DNA of 50,694 nt. Origin: a virus (taxonomy: Duplodnaviria > Caudoviricetes). Below are positions 17 to 50,668 of this stretch, one piece after another. The notes beneath the pieces are model-generated. The model worked only from the letters and a program-made list of their open reading frames with translations. It did not search any database and was not told the origin of the DNA. The stretch spans positions 1 through 50,694 of IMG/VR virus record IMGVR_UViG_3300045136_000360. One strand, written 5' to 3'. How positions within the stretch are numbered: position 1 is the first letter of the stretch; the number at the start of each line of letters is the position of its first letter. Position numbers and translations under genes: made by a program.

Positions 17-493
17 GTTTCAATCCTCACCCGACCCCGCGGCCGGGTGCGACCCGCCGCACCGGCTGCTGGTGGCGCTGACGAGCAAGTTTCAATCCTC
101 ACCCGACCCCGCGGCCGGGTGCGACGCGTGAAGGCGGTCTCGGGCGCGACCGCGGCGGAGATGTTTCAATCCTCACCCGACCCCGCGGCCGGGTGCGACC
201 TGGCGGCGCTCGGCTACGGCACCCAGTTCGCCGCCGTTTCAATCCTCACCCGACCCCGCGGCCGGGTGCGACGATGCAGGCGCTAGAGCAGGCAGGGGGG
301 AGTGGGACGCGTTTCAATCCTCACCCGACCCCGCGGCCGGGTGCGACGCGCCCCGTGATGAGCGACCGCGACCCCGGCGACGTTTCAATCCTCACCCGAC
401 CCCGCGGCCGGGTGCGACGTGGGGAGATCGGCGAGTTGGTAGCCGGCGAGGGCCAGGTTTCAATCCTCACCCGACCCCGCGGCCGGGTGCGAC
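17..493 (-). CRISPR. CRISPR array, 7 identical 37-bp repeats and 6 full spacers (34-38 bp), truncated by the window edge
   Basis: GTTTCAATCCTCACCCGACCCCGCGGCCGGGTGCGAC at 17, 89, 163, 236, 311, 382, 457. Its reverse complement ends in ATTGAAAC and has an internal hairpin, so minus-strand transcription is inferred. Confidence 0.98.
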
Positions 494-760
494 GCCGCGG
501 CGCTGCATGGCATCGAAGATCCAGGCGGCGAACCGGGCCAGGATCGCCGGGTCGCGGGCCTCGGGGGGGCGCGGCGCGACCGGGGCGGGATCGTGTGGGC
601 GCGGGCGTGGCGGGGTCGGCCTGGCCGTCGAGGGACCAGTCGTGGTTTCGGTCGGCGGTGGAGTGGGGGCTTGATGATGGGGCTCTCCTTGATGAGATGA
701 TGAGGGGTCGCGATACCCGCGCCTGTCATGCTGGCCTCACTGTATCAGTAACCCCGGCGC

Positions 761-807
761 TTGACAAGTAGTCAACCCTAGAGTATCATTGATACCCTAG
801 GACGGTG
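761..807 (+). promoter_or_regulatory. sigma70-type promoter overlapped by tandem operator-like sites
   Basis: TTGACA(761)-17 bp-TATCAT(784); GTCAAC-CCTAGA-GTATCA at 771 and TGATAC-CCTAGG at 790. Confidence 0.7.
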
Positions 808-1158
808 CCGGGCGTTGGACGCCCGGGGGAGTGCATGGAGGGCAGACCGGGAGATGCCGCGGCATGCACGGGAGAGAGTATGGGGTGGCCGCGCCCCGCA
901 CGATTATTCGTTGGGATGGATTGGCGGCGGAGGCGCAAAGGAGGGCGGGATGCCGCTGCGTGCGTCGATCTTGCGCCGTGAAAGGCGACTGAGATGCTTT
1001 CCCCCTCCCCGCGGCCGGGTTCCCGCCCGGCCCCACGGCTACCCGCCCCGTTTCGCCACGAGCGCTGGCCTCGTGCGCGCACCCTCACCCACCACAAGGG
1101 CGGCGCCGGGCGTGTCCCGGCCGCCCTGCTCCCGCCGCGCGCGCGGCGGGGTGGTCCG

Positions 1159-1293
1159 GTGGTCCGGCGGCCGGCCTGGCTGCGCGACGAGCCGCTGGCG
1201 ACGGTGCTGACTGGGATGGCGGTCGTGCTGGACGCCGGGCTGCTGATCCTGGCGGCGGTGCTGCTGGCGGCGGGGCGCTGGCCGTGGGCGTGA
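1159..1293 (+). CDS. small membrane protein
   Basis: Hydrophobic 3' part of ORF 994..1293; start uncertain. Confidence 0.35.
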   Translation: MVRRPAWLRDEPLATVLTGMAVVLDAGLLILAAVLLAAGRWPWA

Positions 1294-1315
1294 CGATGTG
1301 GGGGCGGCGGCGCTG

Positions 1316-2200
1316 ATGGCCTGGATCGAGTCACACCAGACGCTGGCCCGCCACCCGAAGGCGATCAAGGCGGCGCACCTGCTGGGCATCGGCCGGGCGC
1401 AGGTGATCGGCCACCTCCACCTGCTCTGGTGGTGGGCGCTCGACTATGCGCAGGACGGCGACGTGAGCGCCTTCGGCGCGGTCGAGCTGGCCGAGGCGGC
1501 GGCCTGGGAGGGCAACGCGGAGGCGTTCGTCACGGCGCTGCTCGACTGCGGGCCGGGCGGCCGGCCGGGCTTCCTGGAGCGGACCGCCGACGGCCGGCTC
1601 GTCATCCACGACTGGTGGGAGTACGCTGGCAAGCTCATCGCCCGGCGCACGCTCGACGCCGCCCGCAAGCGCGCCGACCGCGCCCGTACGTCCGACGGAC
1701 GTCCCGCCGCCGCCCCGCCGGACGGGCAGGGGACGTCCCCTGCCCGTCCAGCGGACGCGGCCACGGACGTCCAGCGGACGTCCAGCGGACGTCCAGCGGA
1801 CGTCTCGCGTACCGTACCCAACCCAACCGTACCCAACCAACCCAACCCAACCGACCAACCGCGAGATGCCTCCCGCGCGCCGAACGGCCGGGCGGCGGTC
1901 GCCTCCGGGGGGCGGCCGGCGGGGCGGCGGAAGCCGGAGGAGATCGCGACCTGGGAGCCGCTGGCCTTCGCGCGGTTGTGGAACTTCTTCGGCAAGCTGG
2001 GGGGGTGCGAGGACGCGGCGCGGGAGTGGGACCGGCTGCAGCCGGACCGCGAGCTGATGCGGGCGATGCGGCTGGCGATCGAGCAGCAACGCGAGGCGTT
2101 CGGGTGGGGCCAGCCGGGCGGGCAAGCGCAGCCGTACCTGTCCACCTGGCTGCACCAGCGGCGGTGGACCTGGGAAGCGGTGCCGAACAAGGTCGAGTAA
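1316..2200 (+). CDS. phage replication initiator / replisome-organizer-like protein
   Basis: N-terminal MAWIESHQTLARHPK...GHLHLLWWWALD...IHDWWEY, central repetitive linker, C-terminal YLSTWLHQRRW; typical initiator layout. Confidence 0.75.
   Translation: MAWIESHQTLARHPKAIKAAHLLGIGRAQVIGHLHLLWWWALDYAQDGDVSAFGAVELAEAAAWEGNAEAFVTALLDCGPGGRPGFLERTADGRLVIHDWWEYAGKLIARRTLDAARKRADRARTSDGRPAAAPPDGQGTSPARPADAATDVQRTSSGRPADVSRTVPNPTVPNQPNPTDQPRDASRAPNGRAAVASGGRPAGRRKPEEIATWEPLAFARLWNFFGKLGGCEDAAREWDRLQPDRELMRAMRLAIEQQREAFGWGQPGGQAQPYLSTWLHQRRWTWEAVPNKVE
1689..1860. repeat. putative replication origin: 11-bp iterons plus an A/C-rich tract inside the initiator gene
   Basis: CGGACGTCCAG x3 plus a partial copy at 1764-1804, degenerate copies near 1689-1756, then a CCAA/ACCCA-rich tract at 1811-1860. 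Confidence 0.6.
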
Positions 2201-2213
2201 GCGAGGTGAGCGG

Positions 2214-2546
2214 ATGGGCAACGAGGACGTCTTCCCCGACGGGCCGGCGCCAGCGCGGCGGGTGGTCCGACGCGTCCGGCCGGGGCAACCGGCCGGGGAC
2301 GGCCGCGGCGAGGGCGGGCCGGGCTGGGAGCGGGCGCGGGCGCTGCACGCGGCAGCGGTGCGCTGGCTGCGGGCCGAGCCGGACCCGCCGGACCTGGCCG
2401 CGCCGCTGGCCTGCCCGGTCGGGGGCCACGCCCACCGGCTGGCGCTGCCGGGCGCGGGCCTGCCGCGCGACGGCGAGGCGCGGTCGTATCTCGGCCGGGC
2501 CTGGCGCTGGGACGCGGCGGCCAATGCCTGGCGCCGCGTGGGATGA
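2214..2546 (+). CDS. hypothetical protein
   Basis: ORF with GAGG RBS directly after the initiator gene. Confidence 0.5.
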   Translation: MGNEDVFPDGPAPARRVVRRVRPGQPAGDGRGEGGPGWERARALHAAAVRWLRAEPDPPDLAAPLACPVGGHAHRLALPGAGLPRDGEARSYLGRAWRWDAAANAWRRVG

Positions 2547-2705
2547 GGACGCTGGAGGAGAACGGCCACCTCTTCACCTGCTGGGGGAGCCGCGAGGCTG
2601 TCCCCTGCACCCACGACGGCTGCCGCGCCGTGCGCGCCGCCGTGGCACTCGCCCGCGAGCGGGGCTATCTCGACCGATCGACCGCCACCCATGGAGGGAC
2701 TGGGC

Positions 2706-3143
2706 ATGAGCGAGCATAGTACGATCGCCTGGACGGACGCCACCTGGCCGGTCGTCGTCGGCTGCGACCGCGTGTCGCCCGGCTGCGCTGCCTGCTATGC
2801 CATCCGCGACGCCTGGCGGATGGCGCACAACCCGAACCCGAAGATCAGCGACGTTTACCGTGGGCTGGTGGAGCCGTGCGGGGCGGGTCATCTGATGGAT
2901 CGCGATCCAGGGTGCGAGCACTGTCGCGGCACCAGGTGGCGGCCCACCGTAGAGGGGTTGGCCTGGGCGCGGTCGCTGCGGGACCAGTGCCAGGCGGCTG
3001 GGGTTGGCTTCTGGTGGAAACAGTGGGGCGGCCCCGGCCCGGAGAGTGGCGGGAGTCTGCTGGACGGACGCCGCTGGGAGCAGATGCCGGACGGGACGGG
3101 CGGGATCGTGGACTTCGGTCTTGACACATCCGCTATCAAGTGA
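2706..3143 (+). CDS. DUF5131 (Gp37/Gp68)-family protein, apparently internally deleted
   Basis: IAWTDATW..VVGCDRVSPGCAACYA N-terminus and WARSLRDQC...FWWKQWGG...LLDGRRWEQMP C-terminus, but only 145 aa. Confidence 0.75.
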   Translation: MSEHSTIAWTDATWPVVVGCDRVSPGCAACYAIRDAWRMAHNPNPKISDVYRGLVEPCGAGHLMDRDPGCEHCRGTRWRPTVEGLAWARSLRDQCQAAGVGFWWKQWGGPGPESGGSLLDGRRWEQMPDGTGGIVDFGLDTSAIK

Positions 3144-3172
3144 GACACTGGCATTGACACGTTAGAGCATCG
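3121..3172 (+). promoter_or_regulatory. promoter plus operator
   Basis: TTGACA(3121)-17 bp-GACACT(3144), then TGACAC-GTTAGA-GCATCG at 3155; same layout as promoters at 42803, 45763, 46586, 48803. Confidence 0.7.
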
Positions 3173-3200
3173 CTGATGCGTTACCGGGAGGAGATGCGCG

Positions 3201-3389
3201 ATGGCACTTGGGCACACCGGGGTTCAGCGGGGCAAGCGGGTACTGGTGATCCTCAAATCGGGGGAGCGCCTGATCGACCACTTCAAGTATCGCAACGACC
3301 TGGCGGTGTTCCTGCGGGAGGCGGGGCGGGTGGAGAAGGAGCGGATGCGCTCGCTATCGATCTACAAGGGGCCGGTCGCTGGGGAGTGA
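3201..3389 (+). CDS. hypothetical protein
   Basis: 62-aa ORF with GGAGG RBS downstream of a promoter. Confidence 0.65.
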   Translation: MALGHTGVQRGKRVLVILKSGERLIDHFKYRNDLAVFLREAGRVEKERMRSLSIYKGPVAGE

Positions 3390-3423
3390 CACTCAAGAGT
3401 ATCATTGACACGTTAGGAGAGAC
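3387..3423. promoter_or_regulatory. tandem operator-like sites before the sigma factor gene
   Basis: TGACAC-TCAAGA-GTATCA at 3387 and TGACAC-GTTAGG at 3406 (19-bp spacing). Confidence 0.65.
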
Positions 3424-3425
3424 GA

Positions 3426-4022
3426 ATGCGGGTGCTGGGAGATCGGGAGGCGGAGATCGTGGCGCGGGCGCGGGCGGGCGACTCCGAGGCGCAGGGGGAG
3501 ATCTACGGGGCGTTCCGGTGGGTGATCTACGCCTTCATCTACCGGATGGTGGGCGACGAGGATGAGGCGGAGAACCTGACTCAGGACACCTTCATGCGGG
3601 CGTTTCGGGGGCTGTCGGCGACCAGGGAGGACACGAACGTGTCGGCCTGGCTGCACCGGATCGCCTCGAACGCCTGCCTGGACGTGCTGCGCCGGCGGCA
3701 GCGGCTGCGCTGGCAGCCGTGGGAGGGAGAGAAGCACGACCACCTGGTCGTCAGCACGGCGCTCGACGACCCGGAGCGCTCGGCCGAGCGGCGGGAGACG
3801 ATCCTGTTCGTCCGGCGGGTAATGGACCAGATGTCGAGCCGCCACCGGCTCGGGCTGATGCTGCGGGAGTACGAGGGCCTGAGTTGCGCGGAGATCGGGG
3901 AGGTGATGGGCCTGAGCCGGACGGCGGTCAAGTCGATGCTCTTCCGGGCGCGGGAGGAGTTCCGGGCGGTGTATGCCCGGCTTGAGCAGGAGGACCGGGA
4001 GTGGGCGGGGGCGGCGGCGTGA
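3426..4022 (+). CDS. ECF (sigma70-family) RNA polymerase sigma factor
   Basis: Region 2 AENLTQDTFMRAF...AWLHRIASNACLDVLRRR; region 4 REYEGLSCAEIGEVMGLSRTAVKSMLFRAR. Confidence 0.93.
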   Translation: MRVLGDREAEIVARARAGDSEAQGEIYGAFRWVIYAFIYRMVGDEDEAENLTQDTFMRAFRGLSATREDTNVSAWLHRIASNACLDVLRRRQRLRWQPWEGEKHDHLVVSTALDDPERSAERRETILFVRRVMDQMSSRHRLGLMLREYEGLSCAEIGEVMGLSRTAVKSMLFRAREEFRAVYARLEQEDREWAGAAA

Positions 4023-4415
4023 CGGTGGGGACGCGGAGCCTGCTGTTCGGGGTGCACCAGTTCCTTCTTCACCCGGTGATGGTGGCCCTGGGGTGGAGGA
4101 TGCTGTATGGGCGGTTCCCGAGGGACCCGCGAGTGTCGCACCCGGCCGCGGGGTCGGGTGAGGATTGAAACCCGCCACTGCTCACGCGAGATTGGGGTGC
4201 CGCCATCGCCCCTGTGCTGGGCGGACAAGCTGGCGACCGCGCTGTACCCCGCCTGGTTATTCCTGTTCCTGGCCCGGCTGAGTGGGGAGATAGGGGAGTA
4301 TCTGGCGCGGGCGCGGGAGGATGGTTCTATCGGCCCCGAGGCGACAGAGCGGGAGTGTCTGGCGACGTTACAGACCGACTGGCGACGGCAAGCATACGAG
4401 TATGGGGATCGTTGA
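4019..4415 (+). pseudogene. phage hypothetical (possibly HD-like) gene interrupted by a CRISPR repeat
   Basis: 5' part MTVGTRSLLFGVHQFLLHPVMVALGWRMLYG (GTG 4019, overlapping the sigma stop); 3' part PSPLCWADKLA..LYP..LARLSGEIGEY in another frame after 4171. Confidence 0.7.
4135..4171 (+). CRISPR. solitary CRISPR repeat identical to the terminal arrays
   Basis: GTCGCACCCGGCCGCGGGGTCGGGTGAGGATTGAAAC, single exact copy. Confidence 0.97.
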
Positions 4416-4438
4416 GCGACACGGCGGAGGAATGAGCA

Positions 4439-5761
4439 ATGGACCGGACGATCACCGAGCGCGACCCGTTCCTGGCAATGCCGCGCATCACGCCGGAGGG
4501 GTTCGCGGGGGCGATGGACGGCTCGCCAGCGCTGGCCGAGCGGCCGGCGCGCGCCTACTGGGAGGCCATCGCGGCCACGGGGGTGGACCCCCTGGTTGTG
4601 CTGGCCATCTTCCAGCATGAGAGCAGGATGGGCCGGCTGGGCGTGGCGACGGTGACGAAAAGCTGGGGGAACGTGAAGGCGACCAGTCGGCAGTTCGGGC
4701 CGCCGCCCGTGGGGACCTACACGACCGAGGATGGGCGGGCCTTCAGCAAGTACGCGACCTGGCTGGATGGTTGCGTGGCGACGGCGGCGCGGCTGGCAGC
4801 GCCGGAATGGGTCTACCGGGGCCGGGCGGGGATGGGGGAGGTGTTCGATCATCCGAGCGGGATGGTGTGGGCGCCGGCCGGCGACCGCAACGACCCGGCC
4901 GGCTACCTGGCGAGCGTGCTGCGGTTCATGAACGACCACGCCGACGCCCCGCACCTGGTGGAGGGGCGGTGGGCGATGGTCAACTCCGATCCGGAGCGGG
5001 GCGGGGCGGTGGAGGCGATCGTGCTGCACATCGCCGATGGGACCTATGACGGGACGATCAGTTGGTTCCGGAATAGCGGGTCAGGGGTCTCGGCGCACTT
5101 CGTGGTGGCGCTGGACGGGCGGATCGGGCAGTGCGTGCCGCTCGATCGCGTGGCCTGGGCGAACGGTTGGGACTTCCGCAAGGGGCTCGCCCGCTACCGG
5201 CCGAATCTGGCGAACCACCTGATCGCTCGCTGGTGGCGGGAGGGGAAGAACCCGAATGCGGTGACGGTGAGCATCGAGCATGAGGGCGTGTCCGGGCAGG
5301 GGATGCCCGAGGCGCAGTTGCGGGCCTCGGTGGCGCTGACCCGGTGGCTGTGCGACACCCTGGGAGTGCCGCGGGACCGGGATCACATCCTCGGGCACCG
5401 CGATCTCGACTCGGTGGAGCGGTCGAGGTGTCCGGGGCTGAGTGACCAGGAGTGGGGAGTGTACCTGTGGATGGTAGACGATGGGCCGGCTCCGGCCGCC
5501 GGGGGTGGGGATGAGTTCTACGCCCCGGACAACCCGTTCGGGGCGGTGCCGATGCGCCCACCAATCTGGACCAGGTGGAACCTGCTGCACCAGCAGGGGC
5601 TGGCGCTGCCGATGGTGGGCTACCCGATGGCCCCGCCGCAGGATGCCGGTGGGCGGATGATCCAGCGGTTCGAGCGGGGATGGCTGGCGGCCCAGGGAGA
5701 GCCGGAGCCGTGGGACGTGGTGATGCTGATGCCCCATGAGATCGCCAGCGGGCCGTCGTGA
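4439..5761 (+). CDS. endolysin: lysozyme/glucosaminidase-like domain + N-acetylmuramoyl-L-alanine amidase + C-terminal binding domain
   Basis: LAIFQHES...F..YATWLDG; amidase IVLHIADG, SAHF, SIEHEG, ILGHRD, CPG; C-terminal GYPM...QRFERG. Confidence 0.88.
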   Translation: MDRTITERDPFLAMPRITPEGFAGAMDGSPALAERPARAYWEAIAATGVDPLVVLAIFQHESRMGRLGVATVTKSWGNVKATSRQFGPPPVGTYTTEDGRAFSKYATWLDGCVATAARLAAPEWVYRGRAGMGEVFDHPSGMVWAPAGDRNDPAGYLASVLRFMNDHADAPHLVEGRWAMVNSDPERGGAVEAIVLHIADGTYDGTISWFRNSGSGVSAHFVVALDGRIGQCVPLDRVAWANGWDFRKGLARYRPNLANHLIARWWREGKNPNAVTVSIEHEGVSGQGMPEAQLRASVALTRWLCDTLGVPRDRDHILGHRDLDSVERSRCPGLSDQEWGVYLWMVDDGPAPAAGGGDEFYAPDNPFGAVPMRPPIWTRWNLLHQQGLALPMVGYPMAPPQDAGGRMIQRFERGWLAAQGEPEPWDVVMLMPHEIASGPS

Positions 5762-5855
5762 TGGGGTGGGGACTGGTGGCGCCGGCGCGGCCGGGGAGGC
5801 GAGATAATACCCTGAGAGATCGGTGATACGTTATACTGGCGATGGGAGGTGACGC

Positions 5856-5957
5856 GTGGCGAGCGAGGTGATGGCGGCGACGGTGCTGGTGGTGCTGTTC
5901 GGGCTGATGATCTGCCTGGGGGTGATCGTCCTGCAGGCGATGCTGCTGCCGCTGTGA
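5856..5957 (+). CDS. small transmembrane peptide
   Basis: 33-aa hydrophobic ORF with GGAGGT RBS; stop overlaps the next start. Confidence 0.4.
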   Translation: MASEVMAATVLVVLFGLMICLGVIVLQAMLLPL

Positions 5958-6214
5958 CGGGCGAGACGCTGGCGGCCCCGGACCTGGCGGGGCTGCCGGA
6001 GGATGGCGGGCGGGACCACGTGCGGATGGCCCGGACCGGACCGCTGCGCTCCGCCGAGGGGCAATGCCCGGCCTGCCGGCGGTTCGACACCTGGGCGCGG
6101 TGGCCGAACGGGGGGCAGGTCTGCACGACCTGTCACCCGGTCGGGTTCACGATTGTGGCCGGGGTGATCCAGGTGCCCTGGGTGACGACCACGAGGTTGA
6201 CGGGAGGTGGGTGA
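5954..6214 (+). CDS. small zinc-finger-like protein
   Basis: CPAC...CTTCH motifs; GTGA coupling with the upstream ORF. Confidence 0.5.
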   Translation: MTGETLAAPDLAGLPEDGGRDHVRMARTGPLRSAEGQCPACRRFDTWARWPNGGQVCTTCHPVGFTIVAGVIQVPWVTTTRLTGGG

Positions 6215-6463
6215 GTCCGTCTACGAGGCTGACGGCATCACCCTCCACCGGGGGGACGCGGCGGCCGTGCTGCCCGGCCTGGCGGGGCCAGCGTCGACGC
6301 GATCGTGACCGATCCCCCGGCGGGCATCTCCATGATGGGCCACCACTGGGATAGCGACCGGGGCGGGCGGGATGCCTGGGTGGCCTGGCTGGCGGGCCTC
6401 CTGCCCTCCTGGGCGCTGGTGCGGGGCCTGTGGCTGGCCAAGCGGCGGGCGTGGGATGCCTGA
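6207..6463 (+). pseudogene. frameshifted, truncated N4/N6 DNA methyltransferase
   Basis: ESVYEADGITLHRGDAAAVLPGLA, then a frameshift near 6285 to SVDAIVTDPPAGISMMGHHWDSDRGGRDAWVAWL and an early stop. Confidence 0.7.
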
Positions 6464-6476
6464 GGGGGGAGATGCC

Positions 6477-6872
6477 GTGGCGTGGCGGTTCGCGGGGGCG
6501 GTGGGACAGGCCAGGCGGAAGGCGGCGGCGGCCCCGGCCCTGAAGGAGCGGGAGGCCGGCTTCCAGCGGTACGTGATCGACCTGGCCGAGCGGAACGGCT
6601 GGCTGGTGTATCACATCCGGGACAGTCGGGCGGTGGTCAACAACGCCACGGGGGCGGGCTTCCCGGACCTGGTGATGGCGCACCCGACCCGGACGCTGCT
6701 GGTGATCGCCGAATTGAAGCAGGACCGGCGCTACCCGCGGGCGAATCAGCGGACCTGGCTGGCGGCCCTGGGGGCGGTGGCGGCGCTGGTGCCGGACGGC
6801 CGGGTGCGGGTGGAGGTCTGGCGGCCGAAGGACCGGCCGATGATCGAACGGTTCTTGCGTGGGACCGCCTGA
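6477..6872 (+). CDS. VRR-NUC-like (PD-D/ExK) nuclease
   Basis: EAGFQ..VIDLA...GW...GFPDLV...AELK...Q..WL...VWRP. Confidence 0.8.
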   Translation: MAWRFAGAVGQARRKAAAAPALKEREAGFQRYVIDLAERNGWLVYHIRDSRAVVNNATGAGFPDLVMAHPTRTLLVIAELKQDRRYPRANQRTWLAALGAVAALVPDGRVRVEVWRPKDRPMIERFLRGTA

Positions 6873-6928
6873 CGTGGCATGATACGGGCTGGAAGCTACT
6901 CGCCTCTGGTCGCCTGCGGGAGGGACTG

Positions 6929-8113
6929 ATGCCGCGGAAGTACGACCCGGAGCGGTTGCGGCCCTACTGGAACGGCACGCACGCGAGTTTCCGGAAGGGG
7001 TGCGCGGCCCTGGGCTGGGACTGGCGAAACGCGGAGCGGGCCTATCTGCGCCTCAAGCAGGAGATGGCGATGGCCGCTGCCCCGGTGGGCGACCAGCAGG
7101 ATGCGCCCGTGACCGGCGGGAAGCCCGAGACGGCGGTCGAGCGGCTGGCGCGGCTGGAGCGGGAGCGGCGGGAGGCGGAGGCGACGGTCATCCGGGAGCA
7201 GGTGCTGACGAATGAGGAAGCGGCGCTGCGGGTGATCCCGGACGCCCCGCGGGCGCGAGGCTACCAGGGGGCCAAGCAGCGGGAGACGGCCGTGCTGGCG
7301 ATGAGCGACCTGCACTGGGGGAAAAAGACCCTGACCTTCGACAACCGCATCCTCCGCGCCCGGCTGGAGGCGTTCGGGGTGAAACTGGCGGCTATCCGGG
7401 ACCTGATGAGCGAGTACGAGTTCGACGAACTGGTGATCCTGCTGCTGGGGGACGTGAACGACGGGACGGAGATCTACCCGAGCCAGGCGCACCATCAGGA
7501 CACCAGCAACGTCGAGGACCAGGCCAGCGACCTGAGCGCCTTCCTGGCCCCCTGGTTGCGGGCGCAGGCCGACGTGTGGGGGCGGGTCCGGGTGGAGGCC
7601 GTGCCCGGCAATCACGGCCGGGCGGGCAAGGGCGCGCACGAGGCCGCCAACTGGGACATCGTGGCCTACAAGTACACCAGTTTCCGGCTGGGGGACAGCA
7701 TCCCCGTGCACCTGAACCGGCAGGGGAGCCCCTTCATCCGCAAAACGCGGGTGTACGAGCACGACCTGCTCCTGCACCACGGCCACGAGATCAAGATGCA
7801 CATGAGTATCCCGTGGTACGGGCTGCAACTGCGGCTCGGGCGCTGGGCCACCAGCAACCTGGCCCCGTTCGATCTGTTCGTCTGCGGGCATTTTCACTCC
7901 GTGGGCTACTGGCAGATCAATCGTATCCCGGTGTTCCTGAACGGGACGGCGGTGACGGACGACAACTGGGCGCTGGAGGGGCTGGGCTACGACTCGGGCA
8001 CGAAGTGGTGGCTGTGGGGGATGAGCCCGAGCCGGCTCGTCACCTGGCAATTCGGCCTCTCGATCGCCGGGGACGGGCCGGCGGCGATACCCAAGGGCAT
8101 AGGAGATGCGTGA
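6929..8113 (+). CDS. calcineurin-like metallophosphoesterase
   Basis: SDLHWG, LGDVNDG, PGNHGR, HHGH, CGHFH motifs. Confidence 0.88.
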   Translation: MPRKYDPERLRPYWNGTHASFRKGCAALGWDWRNAERAYLRLKQEMAMAAAPVGDQQDAPVTGGKPETAVERLARLERERREAEATVIREQVLTNEEAALRVIPDAPRARGYQGAKQRETAVLAMSDLHWGKKTLTFDNRILRARLEAFGVKLAAIRDLMSEYEFDELVILLLGDVNDGTEIYPSQAHHQDTSNVEDQASDLSAFLAPWLRAQADVWGRVRVEAVPGNHGRAGKGAHEAANWDIVAYKYTSFRLGDSIPVHLNRQGSPFIRKTRVYEHDLLLHHGHEIKMHMSIPWYGLQLRLGRWATSNLAPFDLFVCGHFHSVGYWQINRIPVFLNGTAVTDDNWALEGLGYDSGTKWWLWGMSPSRLVTWQFGLSIAGDGPAAIPKGIGDA

Positions 8114-8896
8114 ATGACTGAGGTCGGGCGGGCGATCGACGCGGGGGGCTGGGCGATCCGGGTGGTCGGCCACGATATGGTGGCCCCGGACCAACTCCTG
8201 GCGAACCCGCGCAACTGGCGGCTGCACCCCCGGAGCCAACAGCAGGCGCTCGATGAGGCGGTGGCCGAGGTGGGGTTCATCCGGAGCGTGACGGTCAACC
8301 GCCGGACGGGCTTCATCGTGGACGGGCACCTGCGGGTGGAGCGGGCGCTGGCGGCCGGGGTGACGGCGATCCCGGTGGAGTACGTGGACCTGTCGGAAGA
8401 GGAGGAATGGAAGGCGCTGCTGTTCTTTGACCCGATCGCGGCGCTGGCGACCAAGGACGAGGCGGCGCTGGCGGCGCTGCGGGGCGAGGTGGACCTGAAG
8501 GGCGAGCAACTGCGGAAGCTGGCCGACGACCTGACCGGCGGGGCGAAGGAAACCAGCGACGGCTCGCTGCTGGCGCTGGTGGACGTGACGATCGGGGAGC
8601 CGCGGCATCAGGTGGCCGGGGGCGACGTCTGGCGGGTGGGGCCGCACATCCTGATCTGCGCCGACGTGATGGCCGGCTGGCCCGTTTGGGCGGACTACCT
8701 GCAGGAGGGGACGCTGTTCGTCCCCTACCCCGGCCCGTTCGTGCCCCTCTCGCTCCGGGCCGATGAGACGGCGCTGGTGCTGGTGCAACCGGACCCCTAC
8801 ATCGCCGGGCACCTGCTGGACCGCTACGCCGACGTCCGGGGAGAGGAGGCGGTGGGGCTGGAGCAGCGCACCGCCGAGCCGGGGGGTGCCCGATGA
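8114..8896 (+). CDS. ParB/Srx-like N-terminal domain protein
   Basis: ANPRNWRLH...GF...VTVN..TG.IVDGHLRV; later GDVWRVGPHILICAD linker. Confidence 0.8.
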   Translation: MTEVGRAIDAGGWAIRVVGHDMVAPDQLLANPRNWRLHPRSQQQALDEAVAEVGFIRSVTVNRRTGFIVDGHLRVERALAAGVTAIPVEYVDLSEEEEWKALLFFDPIAALATKDEAALAALRGEVDLKGEQLRKLADDLTGGAKETSDGSLLALVDVTIGEPRHQVAGGDVWRVGPHILICADVMAGWPVWADYLQEGTLFVPYPGPFVPLSLRADETALVLVQPDPYIAGHLLDRYADVRGEEAVGLEQRTAEPGGAR

Positions 8897-9093
8897 GCGA
8901 GATCGGGCCGCCCTCCCCGGTGGGCATCGGGCTGGCCTGCCTGGGGGCCGTGATCGCGGGACGGGCGCTGCTGGCGCTGGGCGGCGACCTGCCCCCGTCC
9001 CCGCCCGGCCCCGAACAACTGTTCGCCTGCCTGGCGACCGCGCTGGCCCTGGGGCTGGCGCTGCTGCGGGCGGGCGGGGGGATGCGGCCATGA
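8893..9093 (+). CDS. small membrane protein
   Basis: Two hydrophobic segments; ATGA overlaps on both sides. Confidence 0.5.
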   Translation: MSEIGPPSPVGIGLACLGAVIAGRALLALGGDLPPSPPGPEQLFACLATALALGLALLRAGGGMRP

Positions 9094-10004
9094 CCGAGCG
9101 CATCCGGACCGGCGGGACCTGGGACCCGGCGGCGCCCCCGATCTATTTCCTGGCCTCCAACGTGGACCGGATGCAGTGGGGCGTGCCGTGCCATGACCAC
9201 CTGCTGGTGGCGGTGAACGAGCTCCAGACCGAGGGCAATATCGAGAAGGTGGGGGGCTGGATCGCCGCCGGCAAGCAGGTGTTCATCGACAGTGGCATCT
9301 TCTGGCTGACCAACGAGCATGCCCGGCGCAATGGCGTGTCGATGGACGCGGCGCTGGCGCTGGCGCCGGAGGAGATCGACGGCTTCGAGGACCTCTGGAA
9401 GCGCTACCTCTACATCGTGAACCGCTACGGCGACCGGGCCTGGGGCTATATCGAGCTCGACCAGGGAGGGCGGGAGAACAAGCTCCGGACCCGCGCCCGG
9501 CTGGAGGCCGCCGGCCTGCGCCCGATCCCCGTCTATCACCCCCTGAACGATGGCTGGGACTACTTTGACGAGTTGGCAACCCGGTATGACCGCATCTGCT
9601 TCGGCAACATCGTGCAGGCCGACCAGTCGACCCGGCTGCGGCTGCTGGCGACGCTCTGGGAGCGCAAGTGCCGGTACCCCGACCTGTGGGTGCACGTGCT
9701 GGGGATGACCCCCAACGAATGGTTCAACGCCTACCCGCCGTCGAGTTCCGACAGCTCGACCTGGCTCTCCATCGTGCGCTGGGACTGCTACCGGGACGCG
9801 GCGGCGGGCAAGGGGTTCGGGAGGATGCCGAAGAACTTCCAGTACGCGCTGGGGGGCGACCCGGAGGGCGACACCGGCAGCCGGAAGGCGGTCCGGATGG
9901 CGAGCTACGGGAGCAACCTGATCGAGCGCAACCTGCGGAACCACCTGGCGGCCCTGCGGCGGCTGGGCTGCGTCATCCACCCCCCGGAGGACACCCGTGG
10001 CTGA
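9090..10004 (+). CDS. dpdA: DpdA-like 7-deazaguanine DNA transglycosylase (TGT fold)
   Basis: VFIDSG, PIPVYH, VHVLG, SSDSSTW motifs; sits directly upstream of queD/queE/folE. Confidence 0.78.
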   Translation: MTERIRTGGTWDPAAPPIYFLASNVDRMQWGVPCHDHLLVAVNELQTEGNIEKVGGWIAAGKQVFIDSGIFWLTNEHARRNGVSMDAALALAPEEIDGFEDLWKRYLYIVNRYGDRAWGYIELDQGGRENKLRTRARLEAAGLRPIPVYHPLNDGWDYFDELATRYDRICFGNIVQADQSTRLRLLATLWERKCRYPDLWVHVLGMTPNEWFNAYPPSSSDSSTWLSIVRWDCYRDAAAGKGFGRMPKNFQYALGGDPEGDTGSRKAVRMASYGSNLIERNLRNHLAALRRLGCVIHPPEDTRG

Positions 10005-10374
10005 GACGATGCTGGCGATCGTGCGGTTCGCGGCCGAGGGCTGGCACCGCTGGCCGGACGCCCCCGACCGGCGCCGCTACCTGCGGGACCCCCACCGCCA
10101 TCTGTTTCACATCGAGGTGGCGATCGAGGTGCGGCACGACGAGCGGGAGATCGAGTACCACGACCTGCTGGACCTGTGCCGGCGCCTGTGGCCCGACCGG
10201 GAGTTGGACGGCCGCGCGCCCGGCGACTGCGCCGCCTGGTCGTGCGAGACGCTGGCCCGCTCCCTGGCCGACCGCCTGGGGGCGATCTACCCCGGCCGGG
10301 CGCTGCAGGTGCGGGTGTTCGAGGATGGGGAGGTGGGCGCGCTGCTGGCCCGCCTCCCCACCAGTCAGGAGTAG
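9997..10374 (+). CDS. QueD-like T-fold protein, DpdL-like (predicted CDG decarboxylase)
   Basis: EGWH...LRDPHRHLF...EIEY...SCETLA...EDGE; LxxxHRHxF instead of CxxxHGH. Confidence 0.65.
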   Translation: MAETMLAIVRFAAEGWHRWPDAPDRRRYLRDPHRHLFHIEVAIEVRHDEREIEYHDLLDLCRRLWPDRELDGRAPGDCAAWSCETLARSLADRLGAIYPGRALQVRVFEDGEVGALLARLPTSQE

Positions 10375-10379
10375 CACGC

Positions 10380-10772
10380 ATGTTCCGAATCACCAAGGAG
10401 TTCTCGTTCTCGGCCTCGCACGTGCTGGCGGGCTTGCCCGAGGGGCACCCCTGCGGCCGGCTGCACGGGCACAACTACCGGGTGGAGGTGGTCCTGGAGG
10501 GGGAGGTGGACGGGATCGGGTTCGTGCTGGACTACAACGCGCTCGCCCCGCTGGCCGACCACCTGAAGGCGCGGTTCGACCACCGGCATCTGAACGACGT
10601 GCTGGCGCCATTGAACCCCACGGCCGAGCACCTGGCCTACTACCTGTATCACTGGATCGCTGGGGCATTCCCCGACTGGCCGCTGGCGGAGGTGCGGGTG
10701 AGCGAGACGGCCAAGACGTGGGCCAGCTACCGGCCAGATGGTCCGGATGGGATGGAGGTTCCGGGTGACTGA
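10380..10772 (+). CDS. queD: 6-carboxy-5,6,7,8-tetrahydropterin synthase
   Basis: FSASH, CGRLHGHNY, FDHRHLND, PTAE, VSET. Confidence 0.95.
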   Translation: MFRITKEFSFSASHVLAGLPEGHPCGRLHGHNYRVEVVLEGEVDGIGFVLDYNALAPLADHLKARFDHRHLNDVLAPLNPTAEHLAYYLYHWIAGAFPDWPLAEVRVSETAKTWASYRPDGPDGMEVPGD

Positions 10773-11448
10773 TCACACCTACCGGGTGAATGACGTGTAC
10801 GCCTGCATCCAGGGGGAGGGGGCGCTGGCGGGCCTGCCGATGGTGCTGCTGCGCCTGCATGGCTGCGGCGTCGGCTGCCCCTTCTGCGACACGAAGGAGA
10901 CGTGGGAAACCACGGCAGCCAACCGGGTTCCAACCCTCGACGATGCCCTGGGGGCCAACCCCCGCTGGTGCGAGATGACCGCGGACGCGCTGGCCGCCGC
11001 CCTGCGGGAGCGCTTCCCGCGCCTGGGCTGGGTGCTCGTGACCGGGGGCGAGCCCGCCGACCAGCCCCTCGGCCCGCTGGTGGAGGCGCTGCACCGCAAG
11101 CACTTCATCGCCGCCCTGGAAACCAGCGGCACCGCCCTGGGCCACGTGGGGGCGCGCTTCCACTGGGTCTGCGTCAGCCCCAAGATCGGCATGCCCGGCG
11201 GCCGGCCCATCCTGCCGGACGCGCTGGCGAGCGCCAATGAGATCAAGATGGTGATCGGCCGGCAATCCGACCTGGATAAGCTAGACACCCTACTGGCCGA
11301 CCACCGGGGGCATATCCCGGCCAGCGCCATGATCTCGCTCCAGCCCATGAGCGCGAATGCAACCGCCACCCGGCTCTGCTTGGAGACGGCCCTGGCGCGG
11401 GGCTGGCGACTCTCCCTGCAATTGCACAAGTACATCGGCGCGAGGTGA
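10765..11448 (+). CDS. queE: 7-carboxy-7-deazaguanine synthase (radical SAM)
   Basis: IQGEG, GCGVGCPFCDT, VTGGEP, ETSG, VSPK, LSLQLHKY. Confidence 0.95.
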   Translation: MTDHTYRVNDVYACIQGEGALAGLPMVLLRLHGCGVGCPFCDTKETWETTAANRVPTLDDALGANPRWCEMTADALAAALRERFPRLGWVLVTGGEPADQPLGPLVEALHRKHFIAALETSGTALGHVGARFHWVCVSPKIGMPGGRPILPDALASANEIKMVIGRQSDLDKLDTLLADHRGHIPASAMISLQPMSANATATRLCLETALARGWRLSLQLHKYIGAR

Positions 11449-11452
11449 CGGC

Positions 11453-16964: not shown

Positions 16965-17250
16965 CATCGTGGTCGAGGTGGCCGATGAGGCGGCGGCGCA
17001 CCGGCTGGGGGCGGCGCTGCTGGGCCAGTTCATCGAGCCGGCCGAGGGGCGGGTGAGCCTGCTGCCCGAGGGGAGCGAATTCCTGGGCATCTGCTACGGG
17101 GAGCCGGCGGCGGGGGAGGATGCCGGGACGGCGGTGGAGGTCGCCCCGGAGCCGGCCCCGGAGCCCGAGACCGGGCCGAGCGCGGTGGAGATCGCGGAGG
17201 AGATCATCCGGCAGAACCGGAAGAAGAAGCGGGGGGACCGGGGGGCATGA
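16948..17250 (+). CDS. hypothetical protein
   Basis: Overlapping operon arrangement, RBS. Confidence 0.55.
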   Translation: MKAVISIVVEVADEAAAHRLGAALLGQFIEPAEGRVSLLPEGSEFLGICYGEPAAGEDAGTAVEVAPEPAPEPETGPSAVEIAEEIIRQNRKKKRGDRGA

Positions 17251-46488: not shown

Positions 46489-46517
46489 GGCGTCCCGAGC
46501 CGACCAGTCCGGGTGGG

Positions 46518-46562: not shown

Positions 46563-46676
46563 CCTGGTGGCCCGCCACCAGGCGCTTGACAGATCAGCGA
46601 TCAGGTGAGATACTGGGCGCATGACACGCTAGAGTGTCAGTGATGCAATCACGAACGGGAGGGAGACGCGATGGGG
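46563..46676 (+). repeat. 114-bp expression cassette, copy A (hairpin, promoter, operator, RBS, ATG)
   Basis: Matches 48780..48893 with one mismatch (46633 A vs 48850 G). Confidence 0.93.
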
Positions 46677-48503
46677 GCAACGATCGCCAGTCCAACGATC
46701 GCCAGTCCGGCGTGGTATCAGGAGTTGAGCCAGGCGTACGGGTCGGGGGAGGCGCACGCCTTCATCCTGTCGGGGGACACCGCGGGGTACGTGGAGCAGA
46801 CCCGGACGCTGCGGGGGTACCTGGAGGAGGTGCTGAGCCGGCCGCGCAACGAGGCGCGCAGGGACGGCATCGAGAGCATTCTGGTCCGGTACGACCGGGC
46901 CTCGGGGGTGACGTTCGGGAGCCCGGAGCAGGAGCGGCGGGCGATCGCGCTCGTGACCGGGAAGGAGGCCGGGGCGAAGCCGGCCAGCCCGACCGCTGCC
47001 GCGCTGGGGGCGATCGGGGGGAGCCTGCCGGGGGCCGGCAATCCGTTCGCCAGCACCCAGCCCCTCGCCGCCCTGACGGCGATTGATAAGCTGGTGCGGG
47101 CCTCGGGCGGGGTGAATCAGGTGAGCGTGGTGATCGATGAGGCGCAGACGATCTGCCCGGCCGCCGACGTGGCGACGATGAGCGGGGAGGATCGGACGCT
47201 GCTGGTGCTGCTCAAGACGTGGGCGCGGGATGAGCGGGTGGCCCGGACCAAGGCGATCATCGTCCTGCTGGTGGGCGACCTGACCGAGCTCCACCCCGAC
47301 CTGCGGGCGGCCTCGGGCGGCTGGCGGTCGGTGCTGGTGCCCCTGCCCGATCAGGCGCGCCGGGAGGGGTTCATCGCCTGGTGGCTGGCCCAGCGGGCGG
47401 CGAAGGGTAGGGCGGTGGACCTGGACGGGCTGACGGTGGAGCAATTGGCCCGGGCGACGGCGGGGCTGAACCTGCGTGGCGTTGAGGACGTGCTGCTGCG
47501 GGGGGCGAAGGCGGGAGCGGTGACGGCCGGGATCGTGAAAGCGCGCAAGGATGAGATCATTCGGAGCGAGTACGCGGAAGTGGCGGAGATGCTGGAGCCG
47601 CTGCCGGGCGGGCTGGAGGACGTCGGGGGGCTGGATTTTGTGAAGGGGTGGCTGGCCCGGCGGCTGCTGGGTCCGATCGAGGCGGGGCGGACGGCGGACG
47701 TGCCGAAGGGGCTGCTGCTGGTGGGGCCTCCGGGCACCGGCAAGACGTACCTGGCCCGGGGGATCGCCGGGGCGACCAGGATGAACGCGATCCAGATCAG
47801 GATGGAGAAGGTGCAGGATAGCCTGGTGGGGGCCAGCGAGCGGAAGATGGCGCGAGTGCTGGGGTTCGCCCTGGCCCTGGCCCCGACGATTATTTTCGTG
47901 GACGAACTGGACCAGACCGATATCGGGACCCGTGGGGACACGTCGGGGAACCCCGTGGCGAAGAACCTGTTCAACCAACTGCTGACCTTCCTGGGGGATG
48001 AGGTGATCCGGGGGCGGGTGGTGCTGATCGCGGCCAGCAACCGGCCCGAGAAGTTGGACCCGGCGCTGTTGCGGTCGGGCCGGATGGACGCGATCCTGCC
48101 GGTGCTGCTGCCGGGGATGGCCGACCGGGCGGCCATCGCGGCGCGGCACCTGCTGAGCCGGGGGATGGACCTGAGCCGGTGTGCCACGGGGATGCTGGCC
48201 GCTGGGACCGAGCGGTACAGCTCGGCCGACGTGGCGGCCGTGGTGGGGGAGGCCGTGCTGCTGGCGCGGGACGAGGGCCGGGACTACATCAGCCCGGCCG
48301 ACGTGGAGGCGGCGCTGGCGGACGTGCTGCCGAGCGTCAGCCCGCAGCAGAACGACCAGTACACGCGGCTGGCGATCGCGGCCTGCAACCGGCGGAGCCT
48401 GCTGCCGCCGGAGTGGCGGGACCGGATGGAGGCGGCCCGCGAGACGGCCACGGCCGAGTCCGGCGGGGGCCGGTGGGAGTGGGCGGAGGAGCGGAGCCTG
48501 TGA
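46671..48503 (+). CDS. AAA+ ATPase (Ycf46/CDC48-like; degenerate first module)
   Basis: GLEDVGGL, GPPGTGKT, IIFVDELD, ASNRPEKLDPALLRSGRMD. Confidence 0.93.
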   Translation: MGATIASPTIASPAWYQELSQAYGSGEAHAFILSGDTAGYVEQTRTLRGYLEEVLSRPRNEARRDGIESILVRYDRASGVTFGSPEQERRAIALVTGKEAGAKPASPTAAALGAIGGSLPGAGNPFASTQPLAALTAIDKLVRASGGVNQVSVVIDEAQTICPAADVATMSGEDRTLLVLLKTWARDERVARTKAIIVLLVGDLTELHPDLRAASGGWRSVLVPLPDQARREGFIAWWLAQRAAKGRAVDLDGLTVEQLARATAGLNLRGVEDVLLRGAKAGAVTAGIVKARKDEIIRSEYAEVAEMLEPLPGGLEDVGGLDFVKGWLARRLLGPIEAGRTADVPKGLLLVGPPGTGKTYLARGIAGATRMNAIQIRMEKVQDSLVGASERKMARVLGFALALAPTIIFVDELDQTDIGTRGDTSGNPVAKNLFNQLLTFLGDEVIRGRVVLIAASNRPEKLDPALLRSGRMDAILPVLLPGMADRAAIAARHLLSRGMDLSRCATGMLAAGTERYSSADVAAVVGEAVLLARDEGRDYISPADVEAALADVLPSVSPQQNDQYTRLAIAACNRRSLLPPEWRDRMEAARETATAESGGGRWEWAEERSL

Positions 48504-48560
48504 CGGATGGGGGCGGCGGGGCGTTGCCCCGCCGCTTCGTATCAGCGAGGGAGGGGCGCG

Positions 48561-48776: not shown

Positions 48777-48779
48777 CTC

Positions 48780-48893
48780 CCTGGTGGCCCGCCACCAGGC
48801 GCTTGACAGATCAGCGATCAGGTGAGATACTGGGCGCATGACACGCTAGGGTGTCAGTGATGCAATCACGAACGGGAGGGAGACGCGATGGGG
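48780..48893 (+). repeat. 114-bp expression cassette, copy B
   Basis: TTGACA 48803, GATACT 48826, operator 48839, ATG 48888. Confidence 0.93.
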
Positions 48894-49013
48894 CGCGTGC
48901 TGACCGAGGAGGAGGCGCGTGCCGCCTGGGGTCGGGAGGGGTTCCACCGGGTGGCCCCCTGGTGTGGCCTGGGGGACGTGGTGGCGGTTCGCGAGCAGCT
49001 ATTGGAGGGATAG
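48888..49013 (+). CDS. 41-aa hypothetical protein
   Basis: Uses the cassette RBS/ATG: MGRVLTEEEARAAWGREG... Confidence 0.55.
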   Translation: MGRVLTEEEARAAWGREGFHRVAPWCGLGDVVAVREQLLEG

Positions 49014-49017
49014 GACC

Positions 49018-50223
49018 GTGGCAACTGACGTGCAGGAGATGGTGACGGACGCGGGGGTGCGGTCGGTGGACGCTCGGGCGCTGATGCAGGACGGCGTGGT
49101 GGCGCGGGTGCGGATTCAGCGCTGGCGGCCCTATGCCGGACTGGATGAGGCCGACCTGGGCCTGCCGGCGATGGACGACGAGGAGAAGCGGCGGGTGCGC
49201 CGGGTGATCGACCTGGGGCGGAAGCTGCTGGTCACGCCCGAGTGGGAGCGCCGGGTGCACAAGGATGAGGAGGCGATCCGGGGCGTGCTGGAGCGCAACA
49301 GCTTCAACATCGGGGGGGCGCGGTTCATTCCGGCGCGGTCGTACCTGCGCTGGAAGGCCGAGCACGCGGCGGCCGTGCAGCGGCTGCTGGAGACCAGGGA
49401 CGCGATGGTGGCCGCCTGGGATGAGATCGGGGAGACGTTGCGGGCTGAGTTCGCTCGGGCGGCCGACGTTGCCTATCGCAATGCCTCGGCGGTGAGCGGC
49501 GAGGTTGCCGCGATGGGGCCGGTCGCCTTCCGGGAGGAGTACGTGGGGCGGGTGATGGCCCTGCGGCCCGGCCCGGAGGCGGTGGCGCAGTCGTTCTCGG
49601 TGACGGTGGAACTGGACTACCTGGACTCCAGCGCGGCCCCGGCGGGTCCGGTGGCCGAGCAGCCTGGGACGGCTCGGGAGATGATGGCCGCCGACGTGGC
49701 CGCCGACGTGGCGAGACGGCGGGAGGCGCTGGCCGAGGGGTTCCTGCGGGACGTGCTGGCGCAGATCGGGGAGATGGTCTACCAGGCGGCCGGGGATGTG
49801 CTGGGCAGCCTGGCCCGCAACGGCCGGCTGACCGGGAGCAGCGCCCGTCAGCTCGAGAACCTGGCGCGGCAGGAGCCATTGCTGACCTTCGCCGACGACC
49901 CGGAGATGGCAGCGATCGTCGGGCAGGTGAAGCGGATCGTGGACACGCCGGCCGAGGCGCGGGAGGCGGGGGAGATCGCCAGGGTGCTGCGGGCGGTGGC
50001 GGTGCTGGCCCGGCGGCAACTGATCGACCTGGGCCGGGACGTGGACAGCCTGCGGGAGTTGGGCGTGCCCGACCGGCCAAGCGAGGCCGCGGTGCGGGAG
50101 GCGCGGGACCTGCTGCTGCCGGCCTCGGCGCAGATGACGCTCGACCAGGCGGAGATGGGCGAGCTCGACCCCGGCGCGATCGTGGCTCCCGATCTGGAGC
50201 AGGAGGATCGGGACCTGGGGTGA
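49018..50223 (+). CDS. DUF3150-like helical protein
   Basis: LG...LGRKLL.P......R..L.R.S....G.RFIP pattern; GGAGG RBS; near the AAA ATPase. Confidence 0.6.
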   Translation: MATDVQEMVTDAGVRSVDARALMQDGVVARVRIQRWRPYAGLDEADLGLPAMDDEEKRRVRRVIDLGRKLLVTPEWERRVHKDEEAIRGVLERNSFNIGGARFIPARSYLRWKAEHAAAVQRLLETRDAMVAAWDEIGETLRAEFARAADVAYRNASAVSGEVAAMGPVAFREEYVGRVMALRPGPEAVAQSFSVTVELDYLDSSAAPAGPVAEQPGTAREMMAADVAADVARRREALAEGFLRDVLAQIGEMVYQAAGDVLGSLARNGRLTGSSARQLENLARQEPLLTFADDPEMAAIVGQVKRIVDTPAEAREAGEIARVLRAVAVLARRQLIDLGRDVDSLRELGVPDRPSEAAVREARDLLLPASAQMTLDQAEMGELDPGAIVAPDLEQEDRDLG

Positions 50224-50268
50224 GCCGTTGGGAGAACAGGCGGTGCGGCCCCGGAGCGCGATCGGCGC

Positions 50269-50668
50269 GTCGCACCCGGCCGCGGGGTCGGGTGAGGATT
50301 GAAACCGGTGGAGGGGGTGGCGTGCGCCAGTGCAGGGACGTCGCACCCGGCCGCGGGGTCGGGTGAGGATTGAAACGCCAGCCCGCGGATGGCTGCCTCC
50401 CCGAGCTTGAGTCGCACCCGGCCGCGGGGTCGGGTGAGGATTGAAACAAACCCTGAGATCGCGTCATTGATGCCTTTGCCGCCGACTGTCGCACCCGGCC
50501 GCGGGGTCGGGTGAGGATTGAAACGGCCTTGATACCCCGGATGGCGGTATCGAAGCCCGTCGCACCCGGCCGCGGGGTCGGGTGAGGATTGAAACGGCGG
50601 CGAACTGGGTGCCGTAGCCGAGCGCCGCCAGGTCGCACCCGGCCGCGGGGTCGGGTGAGGATTGAAAC
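50269..50668 (+). CRISPR. CRISPR array, 6 identical 37-bp repeats and 5 full spacers (34-40 bp), truncated by the window edge
   Basis: GTCGCACCCGGCCGCGGGGTCGGGTGAGGATTGAAAC at 50269, 50340, 50411, 50488, 50559, 50632. Confidence 0.98.

Follow-up and report, generated by a model that had tools for sequence, protein, structure and literature searches.

A hot-spring phage genome joined to type I-C CRISPR repeats: evidence leaning to recombination through spacers over assembly error

IMG/VR record IMGVR_UViG_3300045136_000360 is a hot-spring tailed phage (Duplodnaviria; Caudoviricetes) of 50,694 nt, classed as linear and given a CheckV completeness of 100%; the whole of this stretch is referred to here as the window. 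CRISPR arrays lie at both of its ends, and one more copy of the same repeat stands alone inside a phage gene. The evidence leans to real phage–CRISPR recombination over assembly error. On this reading, phage DNA is joined in the population to the host repeat at 493/494 and 4171/4172, and probably at 4134/4135 and 50268/50269 too. We give an even chance to the specific proposal that these are real junctions, made by recombination between array spacers and the matching phage sites (protospacers). The proposal is based on the recurring form in which phage sequence, a flank of spacer size and a repeat follow one another, on one fitting TTC motif, on the occurrence of one spacer (L6) in two contexts, and on a same-strand deletion inside the phage.

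Host repeats at the ends of the phage and inside a gene

The 37-nt repeat is present in 14 exact copies, with none carrying one to three mismatches (0 expected, from 100 shuffles), and no further copies with up to 12 mismatches were found in the window. By matched strand, seven copies lie on the + strand at 17–493, one on the − strand at 4135–4171, and six on the − strand at 50269–50668. An earlier, sequence-only reading of this DNA had described one 37-nt repeat forming arrays at both ends plus one internal copy, in agreement with our seven, six and one perfect copies. It had placed the outer junctions at 493/494 and 50268/50269, exactly where we find them; the internal repeat, which it had put at 4134–4172, is at 4135–4171. 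The elements on which the argument turns are listed here, with strands given as CRISPR RNA (crRNA) sense for the arrays and the solitary repeat.

1–493, crRNA sense −: left CRISPR array, with seven repeats (17–53 to 457–493), six complete spacers and a 16-nt spacer stub
200–235, −: spacer L3, identical to the right-array spacer 50596–50631 on the other strand, with neighbors that differ on both sides
273–310, −: spacer L4, identical to phage 34783–34820 (−) in 38/38 positions, the protospacer being flanked by ATC
419–456, −: spacer L6, adjoining the junction repeat 457–493
494–529, −: phage flank of the left junction, 36 nt and thus of spacer-like size, preceded by TTC (530–532, GAA on the + strand)
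494–4134, +: phage segment A, between the left array and the solitary repeat
4001–4397, +: split phage gene, one gene of an unnamed family of 140–250 aa proteins, whose halves flank the repeat
4001–4134, in segment A: N-terminal 44 codons of this interrupted gene
4135–4171, + (crRNA sense, the same strand on which the phage gene reads): solitary repeat, a perfect copy
4172–50268, +: phage segment B, between the solitary repeat and the right array
50269–50694, crRNA sense +: right CRISPR array, with six repeats (50269–50668), five complete spacers and a 26-nt stub
50525–50558, in the right array: spacer R2, identical to phage 13130–13163 (−) in 34/34 positions, the protospacer being flanked by CAT, with TTC two nt further out

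Both arrays consist of regularly spaced identical repeats (seven and six), and their 11 complete unique spacers are 34–40 nt long, measuring 35, 37, 36, 38, 34 and 38 nt in the left array and, from the phage outward, 34, 34, 40, 34 and 36 nt in the right one. They lie at the two ends of the same record, 3.6 kb and 46 kb from the solitary repeat.

Among the metagenome contigs searched, the exact repeat was found on a single other contig, L009 (1513 nt), and neither the viral contig collection nor the genome contig collection yielded a match. L009 carries cas1, cas2, a non-coding leader of ∼180 nt, the repeat and the start of a spacer. Its Cas1 belongs to the type I-C kind, cas1c (TIGR03640, 441.9 bits versus a cut-off of 385), and its cas2 corresponds to TIGR01573; Cas3, Cas5, Cas7 and Cas8c were not seen on this contig of only 1513 nt. 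The repeat is predicted to fold at −20 kcal/mol (z −3.6) in the orientation ending ATTGAAAC, compared to −13.1 for the opposite strand. Because of the cas1–cas2–leader context on L009 and this better fold, we take the orientation ending ATTGAAAC to be the true one. Given this, it follows that both arrays read outward from the phage, and the array ends that face the phage are, by orientation, the leader ends. Among relatives of Cas1c, 14 of the 80 loci fetched carry repeats of 32–40 nt that end in ATTGAAA plus one base, on the cas1 strand. Judged by its sequence context, the repeat is an ordinary host type I-C repeat. The arrays tie the phage to a type I-C host of ∼70% GC.

The sequence-only reading had stressed that no AT-rich leader separates the repeats from the phage. 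This is true but not diagnostic, as the real leader on L009 (65–245) has a GC content of 0.74, and AT-richness is therefore unusable for recognizing leaders in this host. The L009 leader was not found in the window, where its best matches are 14 nt long. The earlier statement that cas genes are missing likewise agrees with what we saw: tblastn with Cas1 and Cas2 of L009 gave nothing better than E = 1.4 in the window, other Cas proteins not being searched for, and none of the 30 window open reading frames (ORFs) or ORF pieces scanned proved to be a Cas protein. Relatives of the L009 Cas1, at 47–63% identity, come from many phyla. Allowing up to three mismatches, the repeat was absent from the four genomes reached from the loci and from 401 and 364 genomes of two phyla, the 401 having been sampled from their group. 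P0154, the homolog closest to the interrupted phage gene (86% identity over 36 aa), carries a source label of a Thermomicrobiales metagenome-assembled genome, and this label gives a hint of the host lineage or of a related prophage.

Two of the 11 complete spacers, L4 and R2, match the phage itself, and the other nine have no match longer than 18 nt. Because these two matches are perfect and one spacer is common to both arrays, the arrays are genuine host arrays aimed at this phage. The protospacer-adjacent motif (PAM) of type I-C systems is TTC. The two proven protospacers have ATC and CAT in this place, which leaves the identity of the repeat unaffected; for L4 and R2, escape through a changed PAM or a slipped acquisition may account for these flanks. 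In type I systems, targets with a variant PAM would favor primed acquisition of further spacers. No exact match to spacer L6 was obtained in the viral contig collection.

The solitary repeat lies in the middle of a coding gene. The ORF that starts at 4001 enters the repeat and ends at the repeat's own TGA (4166–4168), and coding periodicity restarts right after the repeat and continues to a stop codon at 4395–4397. With the N-terminal part (the first 44 residues) as the query, 264 proteins reach E ≤ 1e-3; of the 150 listed, almost all are matched at their N-termini. The N-terminal part (4001–4132) corresponds to residues 3–38 of P0154, and the C-terminal part (4173–4394, 74 residues) to residues 97–167 of P0154, 88–130 of P0007 and 138–185 of P0012; used alone as a query, the C-terminal part retrieved only the window's own ORF. 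In an alignment of these proteins (A1), a conserved middle block is missing from the window gene, with ∼58 codons lacking versus the closest homolog P0154 and 50 versus P0007. None of the four homologs scanned belongs to a Pfam family. From the ∼58 codons missing versus P0154, it follows that ∼170 nt are replaced by 37 nt.

This internal arrangement is as expected from two neighboring spacers with sites ∼170 nt apart on one strand, and the join through the repeat could have been made by the assembler or by the cell. Two other views of it were considered and rejected. A clean insertion of the repeat was ruled out by the 50–58 codons missing relative to homologs, and a join of unrelated parts of the genome was ruled out by the two flanks, which belong to one protein family. 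Exact removal of the 37 nt puts the two gene halves in one frame, and likewise at 494 if L6 is read on; such in-frame restoration, at 4133–4172 and at 494, may be due to chance (∼1 in 3 each).

Junctions in contigs of other assemblies

We aligned Logan contigs (k = 31) of four runs to positions 400–9000 of the window; these are assembled contigs, not raw reads. Runs X1 and X3 stem from one sample, possibly the window's own source, and run X5 belongs to another study. Bridging was defined as 31 letters matched on each side of a place. Contigs of a de Bruijn graph are paths without branches, and at k = 31 adjacent ones share 30 letters. Logan/Minia prunes tips and weak links when it makes contigs.

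Both X1 and X3 have a contig of 40 nt that spans 456–495, with a depth of 493 and 496, respectively. Record 3 (3199 nt, depth 28.3) is exactly 466–3664 of the window, and record 11 (3230 nt) is 466–3695. Records 8 and 15, both of 14,504 nt and with depths of 31 and 36, start inside the solitary repeat, at 4143, and extend beyond 9000. Among the X1 and X3 records listed, none covers ∼3966–4142, which speaks neither for nor against the junction at 4134/4135. Records 3, 8, 11 and 15 match over their full aligned length, three without any difference and record 15 with one letter off. When a contig holds repeat letters, the adjoining flank and kilobases of phage in one unbranched path, we infer that no branch of uninterrupted phage enters within that flank.

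Spacer L6 gives a second view of the left junction. Records 1 and 9 (1978 and 711 nt; depth 25.7 and 30; from X1 and X3) end in L6 plus 29 nt of the repeat, and to the left of 419 they consist of non-array DNA with no fit to the repeat. L6 thus has two contexts: in the window, repeats enclose it, and in X1 and X3 it terminates a long non-array contig. No occurrence between two repeats was observed for the phage flanks at 4134, 4172 and 50268, and for 494–529 there is only the TTC at 36 nt. The contig of the repeat itself goes beyond it by 1 nt (G) on the left and by 2 nt (GC) on the right, which fits 4 of the 14 left neighbors and 4 of the 14 right neighbors of the repeat copies, including L6 and the phage flanks at 494, 4172 and 50268. 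Ordinary array links are therefore dropped from the k = 31 graph or weak, and phage links are kept. The depth of the repeat contig is ∼14–17 times that of the phage contigs (493 and 496 versus 28–36) and the window has 14 repeats, but depth is not copy number, and the ratio is a hint compatible with several models.

Run X5 shows a different state of the same region. Its record 23 follows 4171–4296 without difference and then has 178 non-fitting letters, and its record 17 fits 494–598 and then has 47 non-fitting letters; X5 contig depth is 2–3. Because the X5 contigs part from the window at precisely these two points, a near-identical phage that lacks the repeat there exists elsewhere. At 563, within a stretch of Gs (560–566), X5 also lacks one letter, at depth 2.2, which is probably a low-depth error. 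A further run, X6, holds a repeat–spacer–repeat unit, so the host type occurs in X6 too. The exact 30 nt at 4172–4201 had no match in the viral contig collection.

Origin of the junctions

If the junctions are real, homologous recombination would have joined phage protospacers to identical spacers of the host arrays. Where two neighboring spacers derive from nearby sites on the same strand, a double crossover would replace the interval between the sites by one repeat; alternatively, a gap made by CRISPR could be repaired with the array as the template, with the same one-repeat outcome. The internal repeat would then be a double-sided patch in the split gene (∼170 nt exchanged for 37 nt), and the position of repeat 457–493, between L6 and phage sequence at 494, suggests that the same kind of double-sided event took place there. 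For the outer arrays, two cases can be envisaged. In the first, the phage would bear solitary repeats as scars, and the assembler would have entered the host array within a shared spacer–repeat–spacer stretch of ∼110 nt. In the second, two diverging arrays would enclose the phage DNA, and the leaders and cas genes would be gone. How far the repeat contig extends, together with the L6 contig, favors the first case, with the phage as the recipient, whereas the window's path of 490 nt into the array and the rough depth ratio favor the second, with the CRISPR locus as the recipient.

A number of observations weigh against recombination. The X1 and X3 contigs probably derive from the same reads as the window and hence are not independent data, and they carry only 28 (records 3 and 11) or 29 (records 8 and 15) letters on the repeat side, below the 31-letter rule for bridging. 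The junctions at 4134/4135 and 50268/50269 are seen in the window alone, and the inference from unbranched paths depends on how Logan/Minia drops branches. Inverted arrays that read outward and share a spacer in different contexts would be expected from two walks into a mixed population of arrays, and a single simple crossover cannot yield them. On the explanation preferred by the sequence-only reading, the ∼35 bp next to each junction would be additional spacers. The TTC beside 494–529 and the place of L6 at the end of a non-array contig speak for this, but TTC lies at a fitting distance in just one of the three testable flanks, and with a chance background of 6.1% of positions (for a spacer length of 34–40 nt) this is weak. 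Neither proven protospacer has a TTC. Finally, L4 and R2 still have perfect targets in the phage, which would mean self-targeting if the arrays and active cas genes share a molecule or a cell.

The main competing explanation is the one that the sequence-only reading had preferred, namely, that the phage is uninterrupted in nature and the assembler left it through host spacers; our results support it in part. The arrays would contain spacers identical to 494–529, ∼4100–4134, ∼4172–4206 and ∼50234–50268, and the ∼170 nt between the protospacers of neighboring spacers would have been skipped. A spacer of 34–40 nt that is identical to phage sequence forms a shared path at k of ∼33 or less, and contig ends inside arrays are typical of graphs of this kind. 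Much of this fits the window: host arrays with perfect anti-phage spacers are in the same contig, a spacer is shared by two contexts, the contig ends lie inside arrays, the leader, Cas1 and Cas2 were not found, the internal repeat links two nearby points of one gene on one strand (its flanks being ∼170 nt apart in homologs), TTC is found 36 nt from the left junction, run X5 has an uninterrupted relative, and the Logan records carry fewer than 31 repeat letters. Assembler exit as the sole cause does not, however, agree with the k = 31 contigs of X1 and X3, which pass unbroken from the repeat via the flank into 3.2 and 14.5 kb of phage. Uninterrupted phage at ∼28–36× would branch in 494–529 and 4172–4206 and so end or divert these contigs. 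A de Bruijn chimera needs such a competing true path, and in the X1 and X3 contigs none is seen at the two half-junctions, 494 and 4172. This reasoning applies equally to L6 and its 1.9-kb contig. Clipping of short dead ends, as at a genome end within ∼77 nt, is inapplicable internally, where the missing piece lies inside a gene. We regard a pure assembly chimera as somewhat unlikely.

Other views accept the junctions and differ in what was joined and why. The host array may have served an attacked phage as a repair template, leaving a solitary-repeat scar in a viable genome. Type I-C targeting at two nearby protospacers would have opened a gap that was bridged via two neighboring spacers; the scar would remove the PAM side of one target and may serve as a repeat decoy, and the event would be recent, at two or three sites of one phage. 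This would be a natural origin of the solitary repeat units (SRUs) and RNA anti-CRISPRs (Racrs) of viruses, caught early, an idea that we consider unlikely. Quite unlikely, in our judgment, is a variant of the favored reading in which the window in its entirety is a single molecule, with a defective phage set into the host chromosome between diverging arrays. Crossovers at spacers of both arrays would have brought it in and removed the intervening leaders and cas operon. Such a history would account for arrays that read outward with their leader ends toward the phage, and for a leader, cas1 and cas2 that were not found in the window. The loss of cas genes would also make the self-matching L4 and R2 harmless, and the depth ratio of repeat to phage (∼14–17) is near the 14 repeats of the window. 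On the other hand, array links of equal depth would stop the repeat contig at the repeat edges, where neighbors start with G, C, A and T, yet this contig reaches 1 and 2 nt further and fits only the long links. In both X1 and X3, L6 runs into non-array DNA. Four crossovers would be required, and the record ends within arrays, with no host gene. Highly unlikely is an evolved phage function, with the internal copy as an SRU acting as a Racr and the terminal arrays directed against competing phages. The copy is perfect, forms a hairpin (−20 kcal/mol, z −3.6) and has its sense on the strand of the phage genes; a type I-C Racr has been shown to work, according to a passage of PMC10651486, and virus-borne mini-arrays against related viruses are known from a part of PMC6858448. 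Nevertheless, the copy truncates a gene instead of lying in an intergenic region behind a promoter, as the SRU/Racr position would have it, and downstream of it the rest of the gene has stayed open as a reading frame. The genome that would carry the arrays is itself their target, with L4 and R2 matching it at 100%, whereas the viral mini-arrays described in that part of PMC6858448 spare the genome that carries them. The 100% identity of all 14 copies points to a very recent host origin.

Known systems and further phage genes

Recombination between spacers and protospacers, the reading that we favor, has a counterpart in staphylococci. In the work of Varble et al. 2019, phage–CRISPR hybrids are said to be rare products that are packaged and transduce CRISPR loci. 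As in that system, ∼35 nt of homology would join phage to arrays here, in the order phage, spacer-identical sequence, repeat. Unlike the staphylococcal hybrids, which are reportedly rare, the junctions here appear dominant in the sample. Also unlike that case, one double-sided patch inside the phage deletes ∼170 nt, and the arrays at the ends are inverted. Recombination of phage with CRISPR loci through spacers and protospacers in staphylococci is cited in a passage of the review PMC8616872.

The same review, in the passages concerned, cites Faure et al. 2019 for SRUs in viruses and mentions a suggestion that a solitary repeat might serve a virus for integration into a CRISPR locus. Racrs, including a type I-C kind that inhibits interference, are described in a section of Camara-Wilpert et al. 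2023 (PMC10651486); the word ‘recombination’ is absent from that paper. As with the SRUs and Racrs of these passages, a single host-like repeat stands here in a viral genome in which no cas genes were seen, although the same record also has arrays at its two ends. The SRUs described there were sought in intergenic regions and are often found behind a promoter or beside acr genes, whereas the copy here takes the place of the middle part of a coding gene, with spacer-like sequence on its flanks. Medvedeva et al. 2019 (PMC6858448), in the part concerned, suggest that leaderless mini-arrays of phages gain spacers by recombination with host arrays. These mini-arrays resemble the present case in having host-type repeats on viral contigs, but, as that part describes them, they hit related viruses and not the carrier; here, 2 of the 11 spacers match the carrier, and there are 6–7 repeats at both ends. 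A repeat that replaces the interval between two phage protospacers was not described in the literature searched, which did not extend to the supplementary SRU lists of PMC10651486 and is not proof of absence.

If the junctions are real, they reveal a natural population in which products of phage–CRISPR recombination predominate rather than occurring as rare by-products. They would also show in concrete terms how solitary repeats in viral genomes can arise, and would amount to a new route of escape or scarring under type I immunity, with a repeat replacing the DNA between targeted sites. If they are an artefact, the record should caution users of virus catalogues: a contig with a ‘100% complete’ rating would be short of ∼170 nt of a gene plus the stretch between its ends, and anyone looking for virus-borne CRISPR arrays would be led astray by those in it.

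The phage DNA between the arrays has 70% GC, and its + strand carries nearly all genes. The remaining features are as follows.

∼730–990, segment A: non-coding region of lower GC
1298–2200, segment A: replication initiator
2691–3143, segment A: DUF5131 protein
3426–4022, segment A: sigma factor of the extracytoplasmic function (ECF) type, with Sigma70 regions 2 and 4
4439–5761, segment B: amidase/endolysin
8114–12001, segment B: ParB/methylase-like and deazaguanine genes
12579–14261, segment B: large terminase
segment B: portal, head morphogenesis protein and tail genes
25708–26661, segment B: major head protein
31760–34852, segment B: tape measure
46671–48503, segment B: AAA ATPase
48919–50223, segment B: last gene

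No close deposited phage emerged from INPHARED, where a search with 494–8000 gave one 100-nt match at 74% identity, and the amidase had no match in the viral contig collection searched. Relatives of the replication initiator were found at 80 loci, with 30–57% identity. The five right-end genes are absent from the best 25 of these 80 loci (those sharing the most genes), none of which shares more than one further gene. For the − strand frame of 494–640, the homolog search came back empty.

Several of the phage genes have features of their own. The gene for the ECF-type sigma factor (3426–4022) sits directly upstream of the interrupted one, whose start it overlaps. Within it, a 42-nt stretch (3913–3952) forms a Logan contig of its own with a depth of 244.6 in run X1, ∼8 times the phage depth; presumably, this stretch is common to other genomes in the sample. 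The DUF5131 protein has 150 aa compared to a profile length of 243 and matches it in two separate stretches, and hence it may be a short form or another case of internal loss. In 17120–22162, the head-morphogenesis domain is confined to residues ∼160–460 of a 1680-aa ORF, and a 691-aa ORF in 23171–25246 combines RNA-ligase-like and prohead-protease-like matches. A set for 7-deazaguanine DNA modification comprises a queuine tRNA-ribosyltransferase-like (DpdA-type) gene at 8763–10004, a QueE-like gene at 10738–11448 and a GTP cyclohydrolase gene at 11357–12001; this gene set (8763–12001) is possibly an anti-restriction trait of the phage.

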